From Candidatus Abawacabacteria bacterium RBG_16_42_10 (GTDB taxonomy: Bacteria; Patescibacteriota; Gracilibacteria; RBG-16-42-10), in contig MEWR01000011.1 of assembly GCA_001773455.1 (NCBI GenBank), positions 26,323 to 66,620 on the forward strand: a stretch of 40,298 nt of DNA, in the 5' to 3' direction. Position 1 is the first letter of the stretch. Each line of letters starts with the position of its first letter. Shown here one piece after another: positions 8,040 through 39,575 of this stretch. Under the pieces are notes generated by a model that did not search any database, was not told the origin of the DNA, and saw only the letters and a program-made list of their open reading frames with translations. The position numbers were made by a program, and so were the translations under genes.

Positions 8040-8151
8040 TGTATAGCCTGCCAGCCGAAGCTCTGCAAAAGATCTGTCCTCCTGCGCTGCAGCTCCAGAG
8101 GACGCACTGCGCTGCCTGCTCGCTTCACTCACAGAGCGCAGGCTGGCAGGC
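8040..8151 (-). other. GC-rich ~105-nt rod-like hairpin element directly fused to the tRNA-Trp 3' end
   Basis: 11-bp perfect inverted repeat gcctgccagcc (8046-8056) / ggctggcaggc (8141-8151). Inner stems GCTCTG/CAGAGC and GTCCTC/GAGGAC. GC-rich in an AT-rich context. Confidence 0.55.
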
Positions 8152-8277: not shown

Positions 8278-8538
8278 TCAATATATTTGATTGTGAGTGC
8301 CGATATCTAACATCAGTACAATCACATAGTTGTTATATTCCTCAAATATGATTCTCAGGTTTCCTGTCACTGATATTGCCCTCTTGCCCTTTAATCTGCC
8401 TGTTAATGGGTGGTTCCGTAATGAAGAATGGGTTGGTTCTTGAATGAATCTTGCAATAATAAATTTTGTTTTTTGTTTTAATTTCTCTGGTAGAAGTCTG
8501 AAGTGTTTCTCAAAGTTTTTGTGATAGCGGATTTGCAT
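8278..8538 (-). CDS. Type II toxin, YafQ/RelE family mRNA interferase
   Basis: 86 aa. Pattern MQIRYHKNFEKHFRLLP....LRNHPLTGRLKGKRAISVTGNLRIIF.....IGTHNQIY is typical of YafQ-type toxins. Confidence 0.8.
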   Translation of the reverse strand: MQIRYHKNFEKHFRLLPEKLKQKTKFIIARFIQEPTHSSLRNHPLTGRLKGKRAISVTGNLRIIFEEYNNYVIVLMLDIGTHNQIY

Positions 8539-20691: not shown

Positions 20692-21615
20692 TTATTTGTG
20701 GTATTTCTCATGTATCTCTCTTAGTCTTGTATTCGTGAGATGTGTATAGACCTGTGTGGTCGTAATGCTGGCATGGCCGAGAAGTTCTTGTACGGCACGG
20801 ACATCCGCACCATTTTGGAGTAAATGTGTAGCAAAAGAGTGTCGCAGTGTATGTGGGGTGACATGCTTAATGATGCCTGCCTTTTGGGCATATTTTCGAA
20901 TCATGTTTTGAACGCTCAAAGCAGTCAGTCTTCTGTTTTCTCCTAATGTGACGCTCCCCGTACTTCGTGGATGACGATAATTGATAAACAGTGGTTTCCA
21001 CGTGTCTTGGCGGGTAGCTAAGTAATCTTCTAAGACTTTTTTGGCTTGATTGCTGACAAAAACAATTCGGGTCTTGCTGCCTTTACCCCGAACCATAAAT
21101 TCCTTTCGCTTTAGATCAATTTTATCTCGATCCAGACCAATTAATTCACTCACACGTAAACCGGTGGAATAAAGAAGCTCTACAATTGCCAAATCACGCA
21201 GTCCTGCAGGGTTTTTAGTTGCTATCGTCCCTAGTAAACGATCTAATTCCTCCTTTTGTAAGAATTCGACGCTTCTTTGCGGTAATTTACCAACTTCAAT
21301 CTTTTCCGGACTCAAAGTGGGGATATCCATCTTCAGCAAATATTTTAAGAATGCTCTCAGGGCAATAATGTGATAACTCTGTGTCTTTTTGCCGAGTGAT
21401 TGGCCGTGTTTGTCATTGATTCTGTTTAAGTACAAGCGATATTTCTGAATCACCGGTAAAGTGATTTGTTCTGGTCGCAGCATGCCCGCAAAATCGACAA
21501 AACGCATCAAATAATGCTGATAATTGATGATAGTTTTCATCGACTGATTTTTCTCTATCTCAGCATGTTCGAGGAACTCGGTGATGTAGTCGACAATAGT
21601 CTTAGGAGATTCCAT
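20692..21615 (-). CDS. Tyrosine recombinase XerC/XerD family
   Basis: C-terminal catalytic region HTLRHSFATHLLQNGADVRAVQELLGHASITTTQVYTHL (R..H..R/H..Y). ATG 21615 preferred over the TTG at 21702. Confidence 0.85.
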   Translation of the reverse strand: MESPKTIVDYITEFLEHAEIEKNQSMKTIINYQHYLMRFVDFAGMLRPEQITLPVIQKYRLYLNRINDKHGQSLGKKTQSYHIIALRAFLKYLLKMDIPTLSPEKIEVGKLPQRSVEFLQKEELDRLLGTIATKNPAGLRDLAIVELLYSTGLRVSELIGLDRDKIDLKRKEFMVRGKGSKTRIVFVSNQAKKVLEDYLATRQDTWKPLFINYRHPRSTGSVTLGENRRLTALSVQNMIRKYAQKAGIIKHVTPHTLRHSFATHLLQNGADVRAVQELLGHASITTTQVYTHLTNTRLREIHEKYHK

Positions 21616-21746
21616 AGAGAATGTGTGTTTATAATCTATAACACGTATATAGGATAAGGAATAGTGATTAGGGCTTTTTTTGTTCTGTTTTCTAAAAAAC
21701 AAAAAAGAAACCCTCCATACTACTCCTCATCCTATTCACTAATTTG

Positions 21747-21768: not shown

Positions 21769-21842
21769 TCGGGGATCGTCTAATGGTAGGACAACAGCCT
21801 CTGGAGCTGTGAGTTGGGGTTCGAGTCCCTATCCCCGAACCA
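21769..21842 (+). tRNA. trnQ: tRNA-Gln (anticodon CTG), CCA end encoded
   Basis: Acceptor TCGGGGA/TCCCCGA with the U1:A72 pair typical of bacterial tRNA-Gln. Anticodon stem ACAGC/GCTGT with loop CTCTGGA. T loop GGTTCGAGTCC. Discriminator A, then CCA. Confidence 0.9.
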
Positions 21843-21877
21843 ACCTGCGCCCTTCGGGCTTCGGTTGGCAGGCCAAC
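21843..21877 (+). other. GC-rich tRNA-Gln 3' trailer element (GCTTCGG..GGCAGGC family)
   Basis: acctgcgcccttcgggcttcggttggcaggccaac. GGTTGG (21863-21868) can pair with the tRNA end CCAACC (21840-21845) or with the downstream CCAA (21873-21876). Confidence 0.5.
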
Positions 21878-25859: not shown

Positions 25860-25961
25860 GGTTCTAAATTCAAAGTTCTAAATTCTAAGTTAGAAAACCA
25901 ACAACTTTGAACTTAGAACACTTCGATGCACTCAGTGCAAGCCTAGAACTTAGAACTTGAG
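25860..25961. repeat. Heptad array, dialect II, in both orientations around a TTCTAAGTTAGAA centre, interrupted by a GC island
   Basis: gttctaaattcaaagttctaaattctaag / ttagaa...ctttgaacttagaac [GC island 25919-25943] tagaacttagaacttgag. Confidence 0.6.
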
Positions 25962-29575: not shown

Positions 29576-29941
29576 ATGACAAAATTTGCTTTCGACATAA
29601 GTGATGCACAGTTTGGAAAGACCCCCGCGAAGCATATAGTCATGCGTGGTGAATTGGACGAAAGCAATGTCGATCATCATGCAGAAACCATGTATGAGGC
29701 AATTCGCTTGGTCAAACCCGGAACCTATTTTATCTTTGAAGGTAGTGGACTCAGCTATATTAATAGCAAAGCTATAGGTTATCTCACTGATTGGTACAAT
29801 AAACTCAATGAAAAAGGTGGGAAAATCATTATCGTCGGCCTAAAACCGACCATATTCGACATTCTCGATGTCGTCGGCATTACACAGATCATTCCCGTCT
29901 ATAAGAATCTTGAAGAAGCAGAGAAAGAACTATTGAAGTAG
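29576..29941 (+). CDS. STAS-domain anti-sigma-factor antagonist (RsbV/SpoIIAA-like)
   Basis: 121 aa. GELDESNVD....GSGLSYINSKAIGYL, with Ser in the phosphorylation position. Begins 2 nt after the kinase-like gene. Confidence 0.8.
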   Translation: MTKFAFDISDAQFGKTPAKHIVMRGELDESNVDHHAETMYEAIRLVKPGTYFIFEGSGLSYINSKAIGYLTDWYNKLNEKGGKIIIVGLKPTIFDILDVVGITQIIPVYKNLEEAEKELLK

Positions 29942-30011
29942 TGCAGAGTTCAGAGTGCTGAGTTGTGAGTTAAAAACTCTGAATTCTGAACTTATAACTC
30001 TGAACTTGAGT
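29941..30011. repeat. Heptad array, dialect III, as an imperfect inverted repeat between convergent genes (probable bidirectional terminator)
   Basis: gtgcagagttcagagtgctgagttgtgagtt / aactctgaattctgaacttataactctgaac. About 21 of 31 positions are complementary. Confidence 0.55.
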
Positions 30012-30698
30012 TTATTCTTTTATCTCCATCCGTATTCCTGGGCCCATGGTGCTTGTTAGAGTTGTGCTTAGGATATAATTACCTTTGATTCCGGTAGGAC
30101 GAGCGCCTCTTACCGCATTGATGATGACAGCGACATTTTCAGCGATTTTTTCTTTGCCAAAAGAGAGTTTGCCGCCGATTGCATGAAGATTGCCTTGAGG
30201 ATCGTTGCGAAACTCAATACGACCTTTTTTGATTTCGCCTATTGTGCCGGCAATGTCTGTCGTTACCGTGCCTGACTTGGGATTTGGCATGAGACCTTTG
30301 GTACCGAGGATTTTACCCAGTTTGGCAATTTTGGGCATCATTTCTGGTGTAGCTACAGCCACATCGAAACCTGTCCAATTTTCTTTCACTACTTTTTCCA
30401 TAAGATCTGTGTTTCCAGCGAAGTCAGCTCCAGCTTTCTTGGCTGCAGCTACTTGGTCATCATTGACGAAAGCTGCGATAATTTTGCTCTTACCGCTACC
30501 GTGCGGAAGAGATACTGTGCTTCGGATCTGTTGATCGGGATACTTAGGGTCGATATTGAGATGAAAATGTACTTCTACCGTACTGTCAAACTTGGTGGTA
30601 CCTGTGTCAACGAGAAGGCCACAAGCTTCCTCGAGAGGATACTTTTTTTGACGGTCGAACTTGGCACTAGCGGCTTTATACTTTTTGGAACGTTTCAT
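30012..30698 (-). CDS. rplA: 50S ribosomal protein L1
   Basis: MKRSKKYKAA....FDSTVEVHFHLNIDPK....IRSTVSLPHGSGK is a canonical L1 sequence. Confidence 0.95.
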   Translation of the reverse strand: MKRSKKYKAASAKFDRQKKYPLEEACGLLVDTGTTKFDSTVEVHFHLNIDPKYPDQQIRSTVSLPHGSGKSKIIAAFVNDDQVAAAKKAGADFAGNTDLMEKVVKENWTGFDVAVATPEMMPKIAKLGKILGTKGLMPNPKSGTVTTDIAGTIGEIKKGRIEFRNDPQGNLHAIGGKLSFGKEKIAENVAVIINAVRGARPTGIKGNYILSTTLTSTMGPGIRMEIKE

Positions 30699-30709
30699 AA
30701 AATAGGGGA

Positions 30710-31135
30710 TTAATCTTCCACCGTTATTCCCATACTACGTGCAGTGCCAGCGATCATTCGAATAGCCTGATCGACGGAGGTGGTGTTGAAGTCAACCATT
30801 TTGACTTCAGCGATTTTACGTAATTGGGCTTTGGTGATTTTGCCGACTTTCGTCTTATTAGGCTCACCAGAACCTTTGGGGAGATTGATTTCTTTGAGAA
30901 TCAGGTCAGACGCGGGAGGAGTTTTGAGTATGAAATCAAAGCTACGATCTTGATAAATGGTGATAATTGCAGGAATGAGCACATCACCCATTTCTTTGGT
31001 CTTGTCATTAAACTGCTTACAAAACTCTTGAATATTGATGCCATGAGGACCAAGAGCCGTACCGATAGGAGGTGCGGGATTGGCTTTTCCAGCCTTTGCT
31101 TGCAGCTTAACTTTTACTAATACTTTCTTTGCCAT
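30710..31135 (-). CDS. rplK: 50S ribosomal protein L11
   Basis: [43 protein letters not shown] is a canonical L11 sequence. Confidence 0.95.
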
Positions 31136-31177
31136 AACTGAAATTTAAAATGTAAAATTTAAAATGTAAAATTGAAA
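31136..31177 (-). promoter_or_regulatory. Heptad array, dialect I, abutting the rplK start: TTTACA-17-TAAATT-6-ATG
   Basis: Coding strand: TTTACA (31170-31165), 17 nt, TAAATT (31147-31142), 6 nt, ATG (31135). The 29-nt stretch 31140-31168 is identical to 39544-39572. Confidence 0.5.
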
Positions 31178-31720
31178 TTAAACTTTTTTAATCTGGGTGA
31201 ATTCCAATTCTACCGGAGTTTCACGGTTGAAGATAGAGACAAGTACTTTGATCTTTCCTTTGTTTTCATCGATTTCACTGATGGTACCTTGATAACCGGC
31301 AAATGGGCCTTCAGTAATAGCAACGATTTCACCCAAAGTAAAGTCTGCTTTGAATTTGGGCTCTTTGACACCCATGCGCTTACGTATGCGCTTGATCTCA
31401 TCGTCAGTGACAGGGACCGGTATGGTGCCGGAACCGATAAATCCGGTCACATTGGGGGTGTTTCGCACGACATACCATGATTCATCGGTCACAATCATAT
31501 TTACGATGACATATCCGGGGAACATGCGCTTTTCAACCAATTTTTGTTCGCCTTTTTTGACTTCAATTTGGGTTTCTTTCGGAACAATGACATCAAATAT
31601 AAAATCCTGCATATTCATCGTCTCTGTGCGTTGGCGGAGGGCCTCAGCTACAGCGTCTTCATATCCGGAATATGTGTGAAGGACATACCATTTGCGTCCT
31701 TGGCTCGTTTGTTTAGACAT
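31178..31720 (-). CDS. nusG: Transcription antitermination factor NusG
   Basis: KWYVLHTYSGYEDAV (NGN domain) and C-terminal KOW GEIVAITEGPFAGYQGTISEID. Confidence 0.95.
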   Translation of the reverse strand: MSKQTSQGRKWYVLHTYSGYEDAVAEALRQRTETMNMQDFIFDVIVPKETQIEVKKGEQKLVEKRMFPGYVIVNMIVTDESWYVVRNTPNVTGFIGSGTIPVPVTDDEIKRIRKRMGVKEPKFKADFTLGEIVAITEGPFAGYQGTISEIDENKGKIKVLVSIFNRETPVELEFTQIKKV

Positions 31721-31729
31721 ACTGCTTAT

Positions 31730-31930
31730 TTAAACTCCTCCAGCTAAAAAAGTGGAGAGGGACTGGTAACCATAACGGAAAAATGCATCCAAAAGTGTAA
31801 TGACAACTGTCGTTGCCAATGTTATTCCCAACACTATGAGAGTGCTGTCGACAGCCTGTTTTCGTGTGGGCCAAGCGACTTTTCGTAACTCCTCGATAGA
31901 ATTTTTGACGTAATTCGTTAGGCGGCTCAT
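31730..31930 (-). CDS. secE: Preprotein translocase subunit SecE
   Basis: 66 aa. ELRKVAWPTRKQ followed by one TM segment. Conserved position upstream of nusG. Confidence 0.8.
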   Translation of the reverse strand: MSRLTNYVKNSIEELRKVAWPTRKQAVDSTLIVLGITLATTVVITLLDAFFRYGYQSLSTFLAGGV

Positions 31931-32052
31931 AAAGATTTTTAAAAAGCCCTTCCGGGCTCTTAAGCGTCCGTATATTAAATGGTTATAGATAATTACGCAA
32001 GGTCTTTTTTCTTATCTTGCAACTCTGACCCCATTTGTGTTTATTTCTATTG

Positions 32053-32080
32053 TTGTCATACGAATGTAAGTGCGTATAAT
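32053..32080 (+). promoter_or_regulatory. Candidate sigma70-type promoter for the FNR-like gene
   Basis: TTGTCA (32053-32058), 16 nt, TATAAT (32075-32080). The predicted ~65-nt leader contains the dialect II heptad array. Confidence 0.5.
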
Positions 32081-32106
32081 CGATTCAGAATTTTATGTGA
32101 GATTAT

Positions 32107-32147
32107 TGAATTCAACTTTTAACTTAGAACTTAGAATTTAGAACTTT
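32107..32147. repeat. Heptad array, dialect II, abutting ATG 32151
   Basis: tgaattcaacttttaacttagaacttagaatttagaacttt. The 26-nt stretch 32121-32146 is identical to 33417-33442. Confidence 0.65.
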
Positions 32148-32150
32148 CTT

Positions 32151-32852
32151 ATGCCCGCTTTTGATATTCGTGCCAAAGTCGTCTCCAATGTCCGCGTTAC
32201 TGACAATGTATGTGTTCTTACTTTTGCTATGATCGAGCCGCAAGAATTGCAATTTAAAGCTGGTCAGTATCTTTTTGTTCACGCTTCTGAGCGAGTACTT
32301 CGTCCTTTTTCTATTTCCTCATCGCCTGATAACATCACAACTTTTGAATTCTGTATTGAAGTCATCCCCGACGGAGTTGCTTCCAATTACCTATGGAATT
32401 TGAAAGAACATGATGAAGTCCTGCTCAAGGGAGTCTTTGGCAGTTTTGTCTATCATAAAGATCCGGATATTGAAGAAATCTTCATGATTGCTACCGGTAC
32501 CGGGATCGCCCCGATAAAGTCCATGTTGTTGTATGAATTGAATCACGGTGAAAAGCGCCCCACACATCTGCTTTTTGGTGAAAGCATGGCAAAAGATTTT
32601 TATTATCTCGATATTTTTGCGGAATTAATAAAGAAATATCCCAATTTGACGTGTGATCTATGCGCTTCCCGCGACCAAAAAGAAGGCTATATAAACGGTC
32701 GTGTTCAGACCGCTCTTGAGAAATATTTTCCCATCGGCAAAAAATCCAGTTTTTATATTTGCGGAGGCAGACAAATGATTATGGATGTTTCTGATTTGAT
32801 TATCAAAAATGGTGGTGACGCGAAACACATTTATCACGAAAAATTCTTTTAG
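32151..32852 (+). CDS. FAD/NAD(P)-binding oxidoreductase, ferredoxin-NADP reductase family
   Basis: FAD motif RPFSISS (RxYS type), NAD(P) motif IATGTGIAP, C-terminal FYICGG..M. Confidence 0.75.
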   Translation: MPAFDIRAKVVSNVRVTDNVCVLTFAMIEPQELQFKAGQYLFVHASERVLRPFSISSSPDNITTFEFCIEVIPDGVASNYLWNLKEHDEVLLKGVFGSFVYHKDPDIEEIFMIATGTGIAPIKSMLLYELNHGEKRPTHLLFGESMAKDFYYLDIFAELIKKYPNLTCDLCASRDQKEGYINGRVQTALEKYFPIGKKSSFYICGGRQMIMDVSDLIIKNGGDAKHIYHEKFF

Positions 32853-32915
32853 AGTGCAGAGTTCCCTCCTTCGCAAGAGCTTCGGCGGGCAGGCAGAGTG
32901 CTGAGTGTTGAGTGA
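32851..32915. repeat. Heptad array, dialect III, split by a 30-nt GC island (32864-32893)
   Basis: agtgcagagtt [ccctccttcgcaagagcttcggcgggcagg] cagagtgctgagtgttgagtg. The flanks match the uninterrupted array at 29941-29971. Confidence 0.65.
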
Positions 32916-32923
32916 AAATTCGA

Positions 32924-33337
32924 CTACTCGCTGATTTCTGTGATTTTGATCGCTTTTTCTTCCACTTGTTCACGAGGAATGACGATTTTCAAAATGCCGT
33001 CTTTGAAGAAGGCTTTGATTTTTCCAGGGTTGAGGTTAAACGGAAGAATTAAGCTACGAGAGAAACTACCCCAATAACATTCTTTCAGTAGATAATCAGA
33101 TTCGGAAATCTCATCTTCATGAGTTCGTTCACCTTTGATCGTAAGTGTATTATCACTGATCGTGATATGAATATCAGCCAATTTTACTCCTGATACTGGT
33201 GTGCGAATAACAATTTCTTTCGGTGTTTGATAAACATCAACAACCAATTGTCCTTCTTGTTTATCCTGTCCTCCAAAAGAAAGTGGTTCTGCAGAGGTGT
33301 TCGGTAAATCTTTCTTACGCTTAAATAATGAAGGCAT
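32924..33337 (-). CDS. Small heat-shock protein, Hsp20/alpha-crystallin family
   Basis: QLVVDVYQT...IVIRTPVSGVK..DIHITISDNTLTIKGER....FSRSLILPFNLNPGKIKAFFKDGILKIVIP is a canonical ACD. Confidence 0.9.
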   Translation of the reverse strand: MPSLFKRKKDLPNTSAEPLSFGGQDKQEGQLVVDVYQTPKEIVIRTPVSGVKLADIHITISDNTLTIKGERTHEDEISESDYLLKECYWGSFSRSLILPFNLNPGKIKAFFKDGILKIVIPREQVEEKAIKITEISE

Positions 33338-33378
33338 GGCTCAAATTTAAAATGTAAAGTGTAAAATGTAAAATAAAG
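33338..33378 (-). promoter_or_regulatory. Heptad array, dialect I, abutting the hsp20 start: TTTACA-17-TAAATT-6-ATG
   Basis: Coding strand: TTTACA (33372-33367), 17 nt, TAAATT (33349-33344), 6 nt, ATG (33337). Confidence 0.5.
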
Positions 33379-33443
33379 TTTTGAATTGTGAGTTTAGAGT
33401 CTTGAGTTTCATTTTGAACTTAGAACTTAGAATTTAGAACTTG
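33379..33443. repeat. Heptad arrays, dialect III then dialect II
   Basis: ttgaattgtgagtttagagtcttgagtttc, then attttgaacttagaacttagaatttagaactt. Confidence 0.6.
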
Positions 33444-39538: not shown

Positions 39539-39575
39539 AGAGTGAAATTTAAAATGTAAAATTTAAAATGTAGTT
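39539..39575 (-). promoter_or_regulatory. Heptad array, dialect I, abutting the hpf start: ACTACA-17-TAAATT-7-ATG
   Basis: Coding strand: ACTACA (39574-39569), 17 nt, TAAATT (39551-39546), 7 nt, ATG (39538). Confidence 0.45.

Follow-up and report, generated by a model that had tools for sequence, protein, structure and literature searches.

A 30-bp palindromic unit within a heptad array of Candidatus Abawacabacteria is probably a copy of a miniature insertion element

How did a block of 30 GC-rich nucleotides come to lie within an array of 7-nt repeats in the 1.1-Mb genome of Candidatus Abawacabacteria bacterium RBG_16_42_10, a member of the Gracilibacteria? The block, which we call the island, is the palindromic unit ccctccttcgcaagagcttcggcgggcagg at positions 32864-32893 (plus strand) of a 40,298-nt stretch of DNA (contig MEWR01000011.1, here C11, positions 26,323 to 66,620); this whole analysed stretch is referred to as the window. 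It is recognized by its sequence, a predicted local hairpin, a covariance model and covariation. The initial annotation had proposed a miniature mobile or templated insertion, or else a reusable RNA structural module. The evidence favours the first of these proposals; copies may, in addition, work as an RNA module. Our analysis suggests, with a probability of about 70%, that the island represents a miniature DNA insertion element, non-coding and palindromic, whose unit measures 30 bp and which is comparable to repetitive extragenic palindromes (REPs) and Rickettsia palindromic elements (RPEs).

The island is preceded by TAG-AGTGCAGAGTT (32850-32863) and followed by CAGAGTGCTGAGTGTTGAGTG. The left heptad flank, AGTGCAGAGTT (32853-32863, plus strand), begins directly 3' of the TAG stop codon (32850-32852) of a gene for an FAD/NAD-binding oxidoreductase (32151-32852, plus strand; Pfam). 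The stop codon thus lies 11 nt 5' of the island, which is in the sense orientation of the gene. On the other side, the right array consists of the heptads CAGAGTG, CTGAGTG and TTGAGTG (32894-32914, plus strand; C11:59216-59236) and, when the 30 nt are taken out, continues the phase of the left flank.

The same flanks are found without the island elsewhere in the window. The strings GTGCAGAGTT (29941-29950) and CAGAGTGCTGAGT (29951-29963) reappear at 32854-32863 and 32894-32906, respectively, and the array behind a STAS-domain gene reads AGTGCAGAGTT-CAGAGTGCTGAGT, with no gap between the two parts. Compared with positions 29940-29963, the island site is identical at 11/11 positions on the left (the A at 29940 corresponds to the A at 32853) and at 13/13 on the right, confirming that a 30-nt GC island at 32864-32893 separates flanks that match an uninterrupted array. 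This array is part of a heptad hairpin (29940-30011, plus strand) between the STAS-domain and ribosomal protein L1 genes (Pfam), and it had been taken as the "empty site" of the island. The argument is correct in that the array is truly uninterrupted and weaker than supposed in that the array is paralogous and belongs to another locus. Flank identity alone is weak evidence, because the genome contains 13 uninterrupted arrays of at least three SWGARTK heptads, several of them with the identical GAGTT-CAGAGTG junction.

A genome of the same genus (G001) allows a comparison at the orthologous position. Downstream of the island, the window contains a convergent Hsp20 gene (32924-33337, minus strand; Pfam), whose stop codon is 30 nt from the island. 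The region from the oxidoreductase to Hsp20 could be aligned with G001 over the full 1038-nt query at 73% identity, and the orthologous spacer contains heptads of the same kind without the island. Judged by this alignment, the G001 spacer is a better candidate empty site than the paralogous array.

The island is a copy of a discrete unit with defined ends, as had been surmised and as an alignment of 133 copies bears out. A C was present at position 0 in 120 of these copies and at position 30 in 95, and the other flanking positions never exceeded 57/133. Upstream, the flank is unconserved save for the position-0 C, with a T at position -1 in only 50/133 copies. The conserved stretch runs from the position-0 C through CAGG and is followed by the position-30 C. 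Tandem copies join as CAGG-CCC, giving a unit length of 30 nt. The consensus is CCCNCC-TYC-GC-YRAR-GC-TWC-GGN'GGG-CAGG, and the corresponding parts of the island are CCCTCC, TTC, GC, AAGA, GC, TTC, GGCGGG and CAGG. The lack of a target-site duplication, reported from the start, was confirmed with the exception of one ambiguous C.

Copies in other genomes show how the unit behaves as an insertion. At locus L045, an intact tRNA-Asp gene is followed, about 60 nt downstream, by a duplicate of its 3' part. This duplicate is broken by two units in opposite orientations, of exactly 30 nt each, at the would-be anticodon loop and T loop, and nothing is duplicated beyond one ambiguous base. We considered a working tRNA with a unit in its T loop and rejected this idea, since ARAGORN found only the intact tRNA-Asp, before as well as after removal of the two units in silico. 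The interrupted copy is therefore a partial duplicate and no working tRNA. In QueA of genome G079, the unit accounts for ten residues (PPSPRLRRAS) that are in frame and absent in 5/5 aligned orthologues.

More generally, ten open reading frames (ORFs) that span a unit were tested; eight belonged to Pfam families and two did not. The eight recognized genes encode QueA, a type I methylase, chorismate synthase, a MurG-like protein, RmlD, a DUF2298 protein, a class I tRNA synthetase and a glycosyltransferase. The unit lies within or between domains of these proteins, in sense orientation in three genes and antisense in five, and it interrupts the Pfam match in RmlD and DUF2298. With a length divisible by three and a sequence that mostly lacks stop codons, it survives inside protein genes as a loop of 10 residues. 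A different arrangement was seen at locus L167, where an inverted 53-nt pair encloses an ORF without Pfam family and a gene for a ribbon-helix-helix (RHH) protein, with the right arm inside a PD-(D/E)XK nuclease gene. Considered as a transposon with units as its ends, this locus is not a recognizable one.

The length of the insertion was also read from repeat arrays. A periodic flank was present in 9/131 copies, five of which scored well in the phase test; in these five foreign arrays, removal of 30 nt restored the phase in four cases and removal of 29 nt in the fifth. Of 161 copies, 36 are no more than 10 nt away from a tandem repeat with a period of 5-12 (mostly 7), compared with 6.2% of the bases of the same loci. 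Altogether, units were found in heptad arrays, at tRNA-gene ends (adjacent or fused), in an rRNA hairpin loop, and nested in other copies. The unit is discrete, has fixed ends, occurs in either orientation, and constitutes an exact 30-bp insertion into sequences that are uninterrupted in orthologues or paralogues. The initial impression of insertion-like behaviour is thus supported by spacers of the sister species G001 that lack the island, by the exact 30 nt in the tRNA-Asp fragment, and by the 10 codons in QueA. A fixed length of 30 bp, insertion in either orientation without duplication, no conserved target beyond a C and survival in genes together match what a selfish insertion element of the REP/RPE type would show.

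The hairpin of the unit folds on either strand. According to 135 aligned copies, it consists of a 6-bp stem, a 3x3 internal loop, a 3-bp stem, a 2-nt loop and a 4-nt tail. The fraction of paired cells in this alignment was 95.6%, compared with 88.9% in shuffles. The covariation score was reached by 0/500 shuffles, and all slid controls were far lower. As the search pattern fixed most positions, the free pairs are the informative ones. The variable stem pair is GC in 39 copies, UA in 31, AU in 16, GU in 10 and CG in 4 (unpaired or other in 35); the loop-closing pair is CG in 70, UA in 45, UG in 8 and other in 12; and a pair outside the search pattern is CG in 121, UA in 8, UG in 5 and AU in 1. 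In the island, the 6-bp outer stem, which has one T.C mismatch, surrounds a 3x3 internal loop of pyrimidines and an inner GC/GC stem, and an unpaired CAGG tail comes after it. The initial annotation had described a hairpin with a UUCG-type tetraloop. This is wrong, since, in the structure supported by covariation, the TTC is the 3' half of the 3x3 internal loop and the GG at the start of the outer stem. A covariance model of the unit (R1) returned the island as the best match of the genome (46.6 bits, E 2.4e-7), and 15 matches in this genome had E <= 1.

Only three unrelated sites had been counted at first, a number that proved far too low, as copies were found genome-wide, class-wide and across phyla. 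With up to two mismatches allowed, the pattern CCTCCTYCGCNNNNGCTTCGGNGGGCAGG was found in 61/401 genomes sampled from the class, each of which had 1-9 copies, and a reversed control pattern had 0 matches in the 401 genomes. In a species collection with one genome per species, an exact degenerate 29-mer with 21 fixed bases occurred in at least 120 stretches. Among the matches listed (80), the record titles named candidate-phyla groups, Verrucomicrobia, Kiritimatiellae, Acidobacteria, Planctomycetes, Bacteroidota, Proteobacteria and Babeliales, and included the cultured carriers Geomonas oryzae S43, Geomonas paludis Red736 and Geomesophilobacter sediminis Red875. Most carrier records are metagenome bins, in which single cases could be binning errors. 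The cultured strains and the number of cases speak against binning error as a general explanation. The 29-mer pattern was also present in 21 viral contigs, and a plasmid collection gave two weak, unannotated Sinorhizobium matches. Closer to the window, 0/7 other genomes of the family contained the unit at up to two mismatches. We searched the text of open-access papers by topic, DNA strings and peptide strings and found no description of this family. As a separate observation, a Flammeovirgaceae bin (L142, 156-366) contains three unit copies at 87-nt spacing within a tandem repeat, and a fourth copy 5.6 kb away.

Within the genome of the window, three island-type copies are near-identical (44-47 bits): the island itself (C11:59186), C14:26289 and C20:28072. 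All three lie in CAGAGTK heptad arrays in one register, after GAGTT, and each has AGTGCWGAGTT on its 5' side and CWGARTG heptads on its 3' side. The 11-nt left flank of the island is identical 5' of the C14 copy and has one base changed 5' of the C20 copy. As read from the sequence, taking out exactly 30 nt restores the heptad phase in 3/3 cases. Moreover, all three copies are located 10-16 nt past the stop codon of the upstream gene and in the sense orientation of that gene. They have in common an AAGA/AGGA loop and the T.C mismatch in the stem, both of which are rare in the wider family, and for this reason we infer that the three copies descend from one another. They would have spread into CAGAGTK arrays at the single register after GAGTT, most likely via a single-stranded hairpin that is handled by a putative trans-acting enzyme. 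Downstream of a gene, the unit would then be transcribed within the 3' region.

Several findings weigh against an insertion element. In G001, the spacers orthologous to those with the C14 and C20 copies lack the island and contain different heptads; these spacers appear to be replaced regions and not clean empty sites. The sense position behind stop codons in 3/3 cases also fits a transcribed functional module or the copying of a larger cassette. The unpaired positions of the unit (internal loop and CAGG tail) are conserved across phyla, which requires a sequence reader, an enzyme or an RNA partner, and none was found. When the island is taken with its RNA context (86 nt), its fold is not better than that of shuffled sequences (z +1.29 and +1.67). 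As to an enzyme, the 300-nt flanks of the three Y1_Tnp transposase ORFs of this genome contain no unit copies and no obvious flanking repeats, and 23 Y1_Tnp loci (20 from five copy-rich genomes and the three here; 68,107 bases) contained one weak copy. Finally, the contigs of four metagenome DNA runs contain the island and no joint that skips it. The check for polymorphism in population metagenomes, suggested at the outset, thus revealed no presence/absence allele at the island in these contigs, which drop rare variants, and the result neither supports nor refutes mobility.

The same four runs yielded a further observation. In the bin 32865-32895, 31-mers that differ from the island by four letters reach a word depth of up to 50, compared with a flanking depth of about 4. 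Other organisms in these samples therefore carry related units.

The window also contains relatives of the island at the ends of tRNA genes. The window has exactly three occurrences of the 3' motif GCTTCGGNNGGCAGGC, at 8046-8061 (minus strand), 21858-21873 and 32879-32894, and the three contexts are the tRNA-Trp trailer, the tRNA-Gln trailer and the island. In 100 shuffles, the mean number of occurrences was 0.14, and three were reached in 0/100. The tRNA-Gln trailer module (21840-21875, plus strand) is composed of CCAACC, TGC, GCCCTTCGGGC, TTC, GGTTGG and CAGGCCA. Its first three bases are the CCA of the tRNA, and it matches R1 at E 0.0048. The tRNA-Trp trailer (8046-8146, minus strand) is a long form, in which the outer module (CCAGCC, TGC, GC..GC, TTC, GGCTGG and CAGGC) likewise starts from the CCA of the tRNA and carries, nested in its loop, another hairpin of about 70 nt. 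The long form was also found behind tRNA-Glu (C16) and tRNA-Ser-cga (C18), and farther downstream of tRNA-Pro-tgg (C20), where a short module abuts the CCA.

These modules constitute a subfamily of the form CCA-NCC TRC GC...GC TTC GGN'-TGG CAGGC, in which the first CCA belongs to the tRNA and the stem is altered to TGG, which pairs with CCA. Its 5' half has 18 matches in the genome, eight of them at the CCA of one of the 44 tRNA/tmRNA genes. In relatives, the 3' motif was matched eight times, and in 8/8 cases a tRNA or tmRNA CCA precedes it (seven in G002 and one in G001). A covariance model made from island-type copies only finds tRNA trailers at E 8e-5 to 5e-3 per genome, including the tRNA-Gln trailer at E 0.005. 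The kinship of the island with the tRNA-Trp and tRNA-Gln trailer hairpins, noticed early on, is therefore real. Apart from chance matches on the tRNAs themselves, Rfam searches of these trailers at E <= 1 gave nothing but tRNA and tmRNA.

Related modules also interrupt an rRNA gene and a protein gene of this genome. The 23S rRNA gene (C23:35700-36500, L308) is interrupted at model positions 1218/1219, where a hairpin loop has gained 51 nt. These include a GC module in antisense orientation, and the only other Rfam match is the 23S rRNA around that copy. A ComM/Mg-chelatase-like gene (C26:26173-27738, L320) contains an in-frame insertion of 15 residues, LPHEAPKGAQYGPAT, between the conserved NPCxCG and CxC motifs. 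This insertion is encoded by the GC module together with a small adjacent hairpin and is absent in 4/4 aligned relatives; the ComM-like gene of G001 is split between two contigs at the insertion point. One related module abuts the 5' end of tRNA-Glu in reverse orientation, and some modules are nested inside long forms.

An alternative is that the unit is primarily a reusable functional RNA module, a hairpin maintained by selection that, after transcription, would define, protect or process RNA 3' ends (mRNA 3' regions in the case of the island, tRNA and tmRNA trailers in the case of the CCA-linked subfamily), with spread being secondary. The start at the encoded CCA of 8/44 tRNA/tmRNA genes and in 8/8 cases in relatives, the pairing of the stem TGG with CCA, the sense position of all three genomic island-type copies closely behind stop codons, and the conservation of unpaired positions across phyla are consistent with such a role. 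It is difficult to reconcile with the presence of both orientations inside protein genes (3 sense and 5 antisense), with copies in a tRNA pseudo-fragment and, antisense, in the 23S rRNA insertion, with the sister species that lacks the unit at all three loci, or with an RNA context that folds no better than shuffles. A terminator scan of 29800-33400 detected no T-run terminator at either heptad array, and the island hairpin is followed by CAGGCAGAGTG and not by a T-run, so it does not qualify as an intrinsic (Rho-independent) terminator. At gathering score, Rfam 15 identified only two tRNAs in the whole window, and it gave 0 matches in 32780-32980 at E <= 10. We therefore consider a primarily RNA-based function unlikely. 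An RNA role may nevertheless coexist with insertion, above all for the CCA-pairing trailers.

Further trailers and neighbours of tRNA genes deserve mention in their own right. Most tRNAs and the tmRNA of this genome are followed by a second, AT-richer trailer of the form CCA-NAAACC-ACTCGCnnnGCTCG-GGTTTN'-TGG-CNNG-CCA, which continues with about 30 nt of AT-rich spacer, the segment AGTGGTTTN'TG, complementary to the start of the trailer, and the hairpin CAGTGAAC...GTTCACTG. The pattern has 21 matches in this genome, 16 of them exactly at a tRNA/tmRNA CCA (e.g. L004 at C28:33230-33620, L005 and L006), nine in G001, and 0-1 in each of the other six family genomes. N and N' covary, there is no Rfam match, and the two alternative pairings look like a switch or terminal inverted repeats. 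In G003, which belongs to another genus of the family (L087-L116), the tRNA trailers consist of CCA-CGATCGC-nnnn-GCGATCG, a heptad array, CGCGATCG and a complementary heptad array. They are alike within that genome and unlike the trailers of the window genome in sequence, and genome-specific conserved trailers seem to be a trait of the lineage. A perfect 17-nt mini-palindrome, GGTCGCCTGAGGCGACC (or ...CTCAGG...; the GGTCGCCTSAGGCGACC mini-hairpin), recurs in trailers and leaders of several tRNA genes. Examples are the trailer of tRNA-Met on C8 and a site upstream of tRNA-Ser-tga (C11), and one copy occurs inside another GC module at C10:28648. In the window, an ORF for a YafQ-family toxin (8278-8538, minus strand) lies just upstream of tRNA-Trp, and an ORF for a tyrosine recombinase of the phage-integrase family (20692-21702, minus strand) ends 67 nt before tRNA-Gln.

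In another alternative, the island did not transpose within this genome but was copied between arrays by homology-driven gene conversion or templated repair through their near-identical heptad flanks, and the unit rides in a larger cassette. BLAST comparison of the three island loci gave similarity over 56 nt (95% and 91%), which covers 11 nt to the left and about 15 nt to the right of the unit and thus reaches into both flanks. The single heptad register after GAGTT and the private variants common to the three copies (the AAGA/AGGA loop and the T.C mismatch) agree with this idea. Still, the homology of the flanks is short and, on the right, imperfect, with 4-5 differences in 14 nt among the three copies. 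Elsewhere, the unit stands in unrelated flanks, in genes and in a tRNA fragment, so the family is independent of flank homology. As an account of the island, gene conversion without transposition is improbable. Within this genome, copying between heptad arrays via short homologous flanks is a possible route for the element.

The arrays themselves are numerous. A loose expression identified 139 degenerate heptad arrays in the intergenic regions of the genome. Their heptads fall into at least three sequence families (CTAAGTT/CTAAATT, TAAAATG/TAAAATT and CAGAGTT/CTGAGTG), and the arrays often form inverted pairs, resulting in long hairpins between genes. Examples in the window are 25864-25891, 31146-31173, 33341-33368 and 39550-39570. 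The uninterrupted hairpin at 29940-30011 has a fold z of -3.51, and 0/200 shuffles folded as well.

If the unit is an insertion element, one may ask whether it is a classical REP mobilized by a REP-associated tyrosine transposase (RAYT) of the Y1/HUH type. The unit is a short imperfect palindrome with a 4-nt foot tag (CAGG/CCTG), and it is dispersed and often located between convergent genes. The genome encodes three diverged Y1_Tnp ORFs (about 175 residues) with HUH and Tyr motifs at C9:24744-24917, C8:82623-83027 and C5:23524-23688 (L001-L003). In the class sample, Y1_Tnp was present in 46/61 carriers of the unit and in 134/340 non-carriers, uncorrected for kinship. This association is confounded by kinship, and we do not rely on it. 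The tag of the unit is neither GTAG nor CGTC, and its near-identity across phyla is unlike that of species-specific REPs. No REPtron was seen, with a single weak copy around the 23 Y1_Tnp loci, and we dropped this idea. No Y1_Tnp match was obtained in 15/61 carriers, including G056 and G321, in which all copies are on contig C1, at coordinates of up to about 1.2 Mb and 0.97 Mb, respectively. In view of these findings, mobilization by a RAYT seems very unlikely. It was also observed that in several class genomes (e.g. G029, G224 and G382) the best Y1_Tnp matches contain 1-15 in-frame TGA codons, an indication that TGA specifies a residue in part of the class.

Short hairpins rich in GC are common, and a loose structural descriptor was unspecific (68 matches compared with 31-49 in shuffled genomes; true members were chosen by GC-rich arms and tail). 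That the copies resemble one another by chance is refuted by three exact motifs in the window against 0.14 expected, by 0/401 genomes for the reversed control against 61 genomes matched, by the recurrence, in at least 120 stretches, of a 29-mer in which 21 bases are fixed, and by strong covariation.

Beyond its classification as an insertion element, we tentatively envisage a more specific and rather speculative reading of the unit. It could be an undescribed minimal mobile hairpin that depends on a putative conserved insertion or copying machinery, other than a flanking RAYT, and that prefers structured single-stranded DNA such as heptad arrays, hairpin loops and tRNA-gene ends. As part of the same tentative reading, the near-constant sequence across phyla would result from dependence on conserved machinery, and the CCA-pairing derivative would have become a standard tRNA/tmRNA trailer and a candidate 3'-end processing signal in this lineage.

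The unit, in which about 21 of 30 bp are fixed, is shared by candidate phyla, Verrucomicrobia, Acidobacteria, Planctomycetes, Bacteroidota, Proteobacteria and cultured Geomonas strains. If our interpretation is true, this would point to an unrecognized and widely shared way to move or copy very small DNA hairpins. It would explain the recurrent "orphan" decapeptides (of the PPSPRLRRAG, PSFAKASEGR, LRQGFGGQA and RRSFSEGG types) in proteins predicted from metagenome genomes, and the unit would allow recent insertions to be traced in uncultivable organisms. The link to tRNA and tmRNA 3' ends bears on the maturation of stable RNAs in genome-reduced bacteria. Cultured carriers make both mobility and an RNA role directly testable.

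Among known systems, REPs and RPEs come closest to the unit. They are usually specific for a species or genus and tied to a transposase of their own, and RPEs are roughly 100-150 nt long. In Di Nocera et al. (2013, PMC3733652), REPs are described as imperfect palindromes of 20-40 bp with GTAG or CGTC tags, in families mostly limited to species or groups. The unit resembles REPs as described there in being an imperfect palindrome of 20-40 bp with stem mismatches and a short conserved foot tag, and in being dispersed, often downstream of or between convergent genes, sometimes within genes, and in tandem or nested. It differs from REPs in its CAGG/CCTG tag (133 copies have the ends CCC... and ...CAGG), in its low copy number (three here, and up to nine per genome at up to two mismatches, compared with hundreds in REP-rich species), in the lack of a RAYT gene flanked by copies, and in being nearly constant across distant phyla. 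RPEs are named in the same paper as in-frame insertions in ORFs. Like them, the unit is a palindromic repeat found in frame in conserved protein genes and in RNA genes without destroying them; unlike them, it is 30 nt long, lacks a CGTC end, and is not confined to one genus, with hosts in other phyla.

With MITEs (inverted-repeat transposable elements of miniature size) such as Correia/NEMIS, RUP, ERIC and Nezha, the unit shares its non-coding, dispersed and hairpin-forming nature and co-transcription with neighbours. However, it is far shorter than the 70-300 bp of MITEs, the whole unit is one 30-nt hairpin with no internal segment framed by 15-30 bp of terminal inverted repeats, and there is no target-site duplication. 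The GC clusters of yeast mitochondria are short GC-rich palindromes in AT-richer DNA, located in intergenic, rRNA and nested sites, which are regarded as mobile and are reported to have short target duplications. The unit is similar to them in that GC palindromes are scattered over intergenic, rRNA and nested sites, and differs in sequence, in host compartment, and in the absence of any duplication beyond one base. Palindrome-associated elements derived from IS200/IS605 insert 3' of a fixed tetra- or pentanucleotide target, with no duplication. The tRNA-Asp fragment showed no duplication for the unit either, and the flank upstream of the unit is unconserved save for the C at position 0.

The unit may have been sighted before, in Geobacter metallireducens. 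Aklujkar et al. (2009, PMC2700814) state that its multicopy "class 4" CCYTC sites resemble sequences in many genomes and read them as binding sites of a global regulator. The unit contains CCCTC/CCTTC and its complement, and the Geobacter relatives Geomonas and Geomesophilobacter carry the unit.

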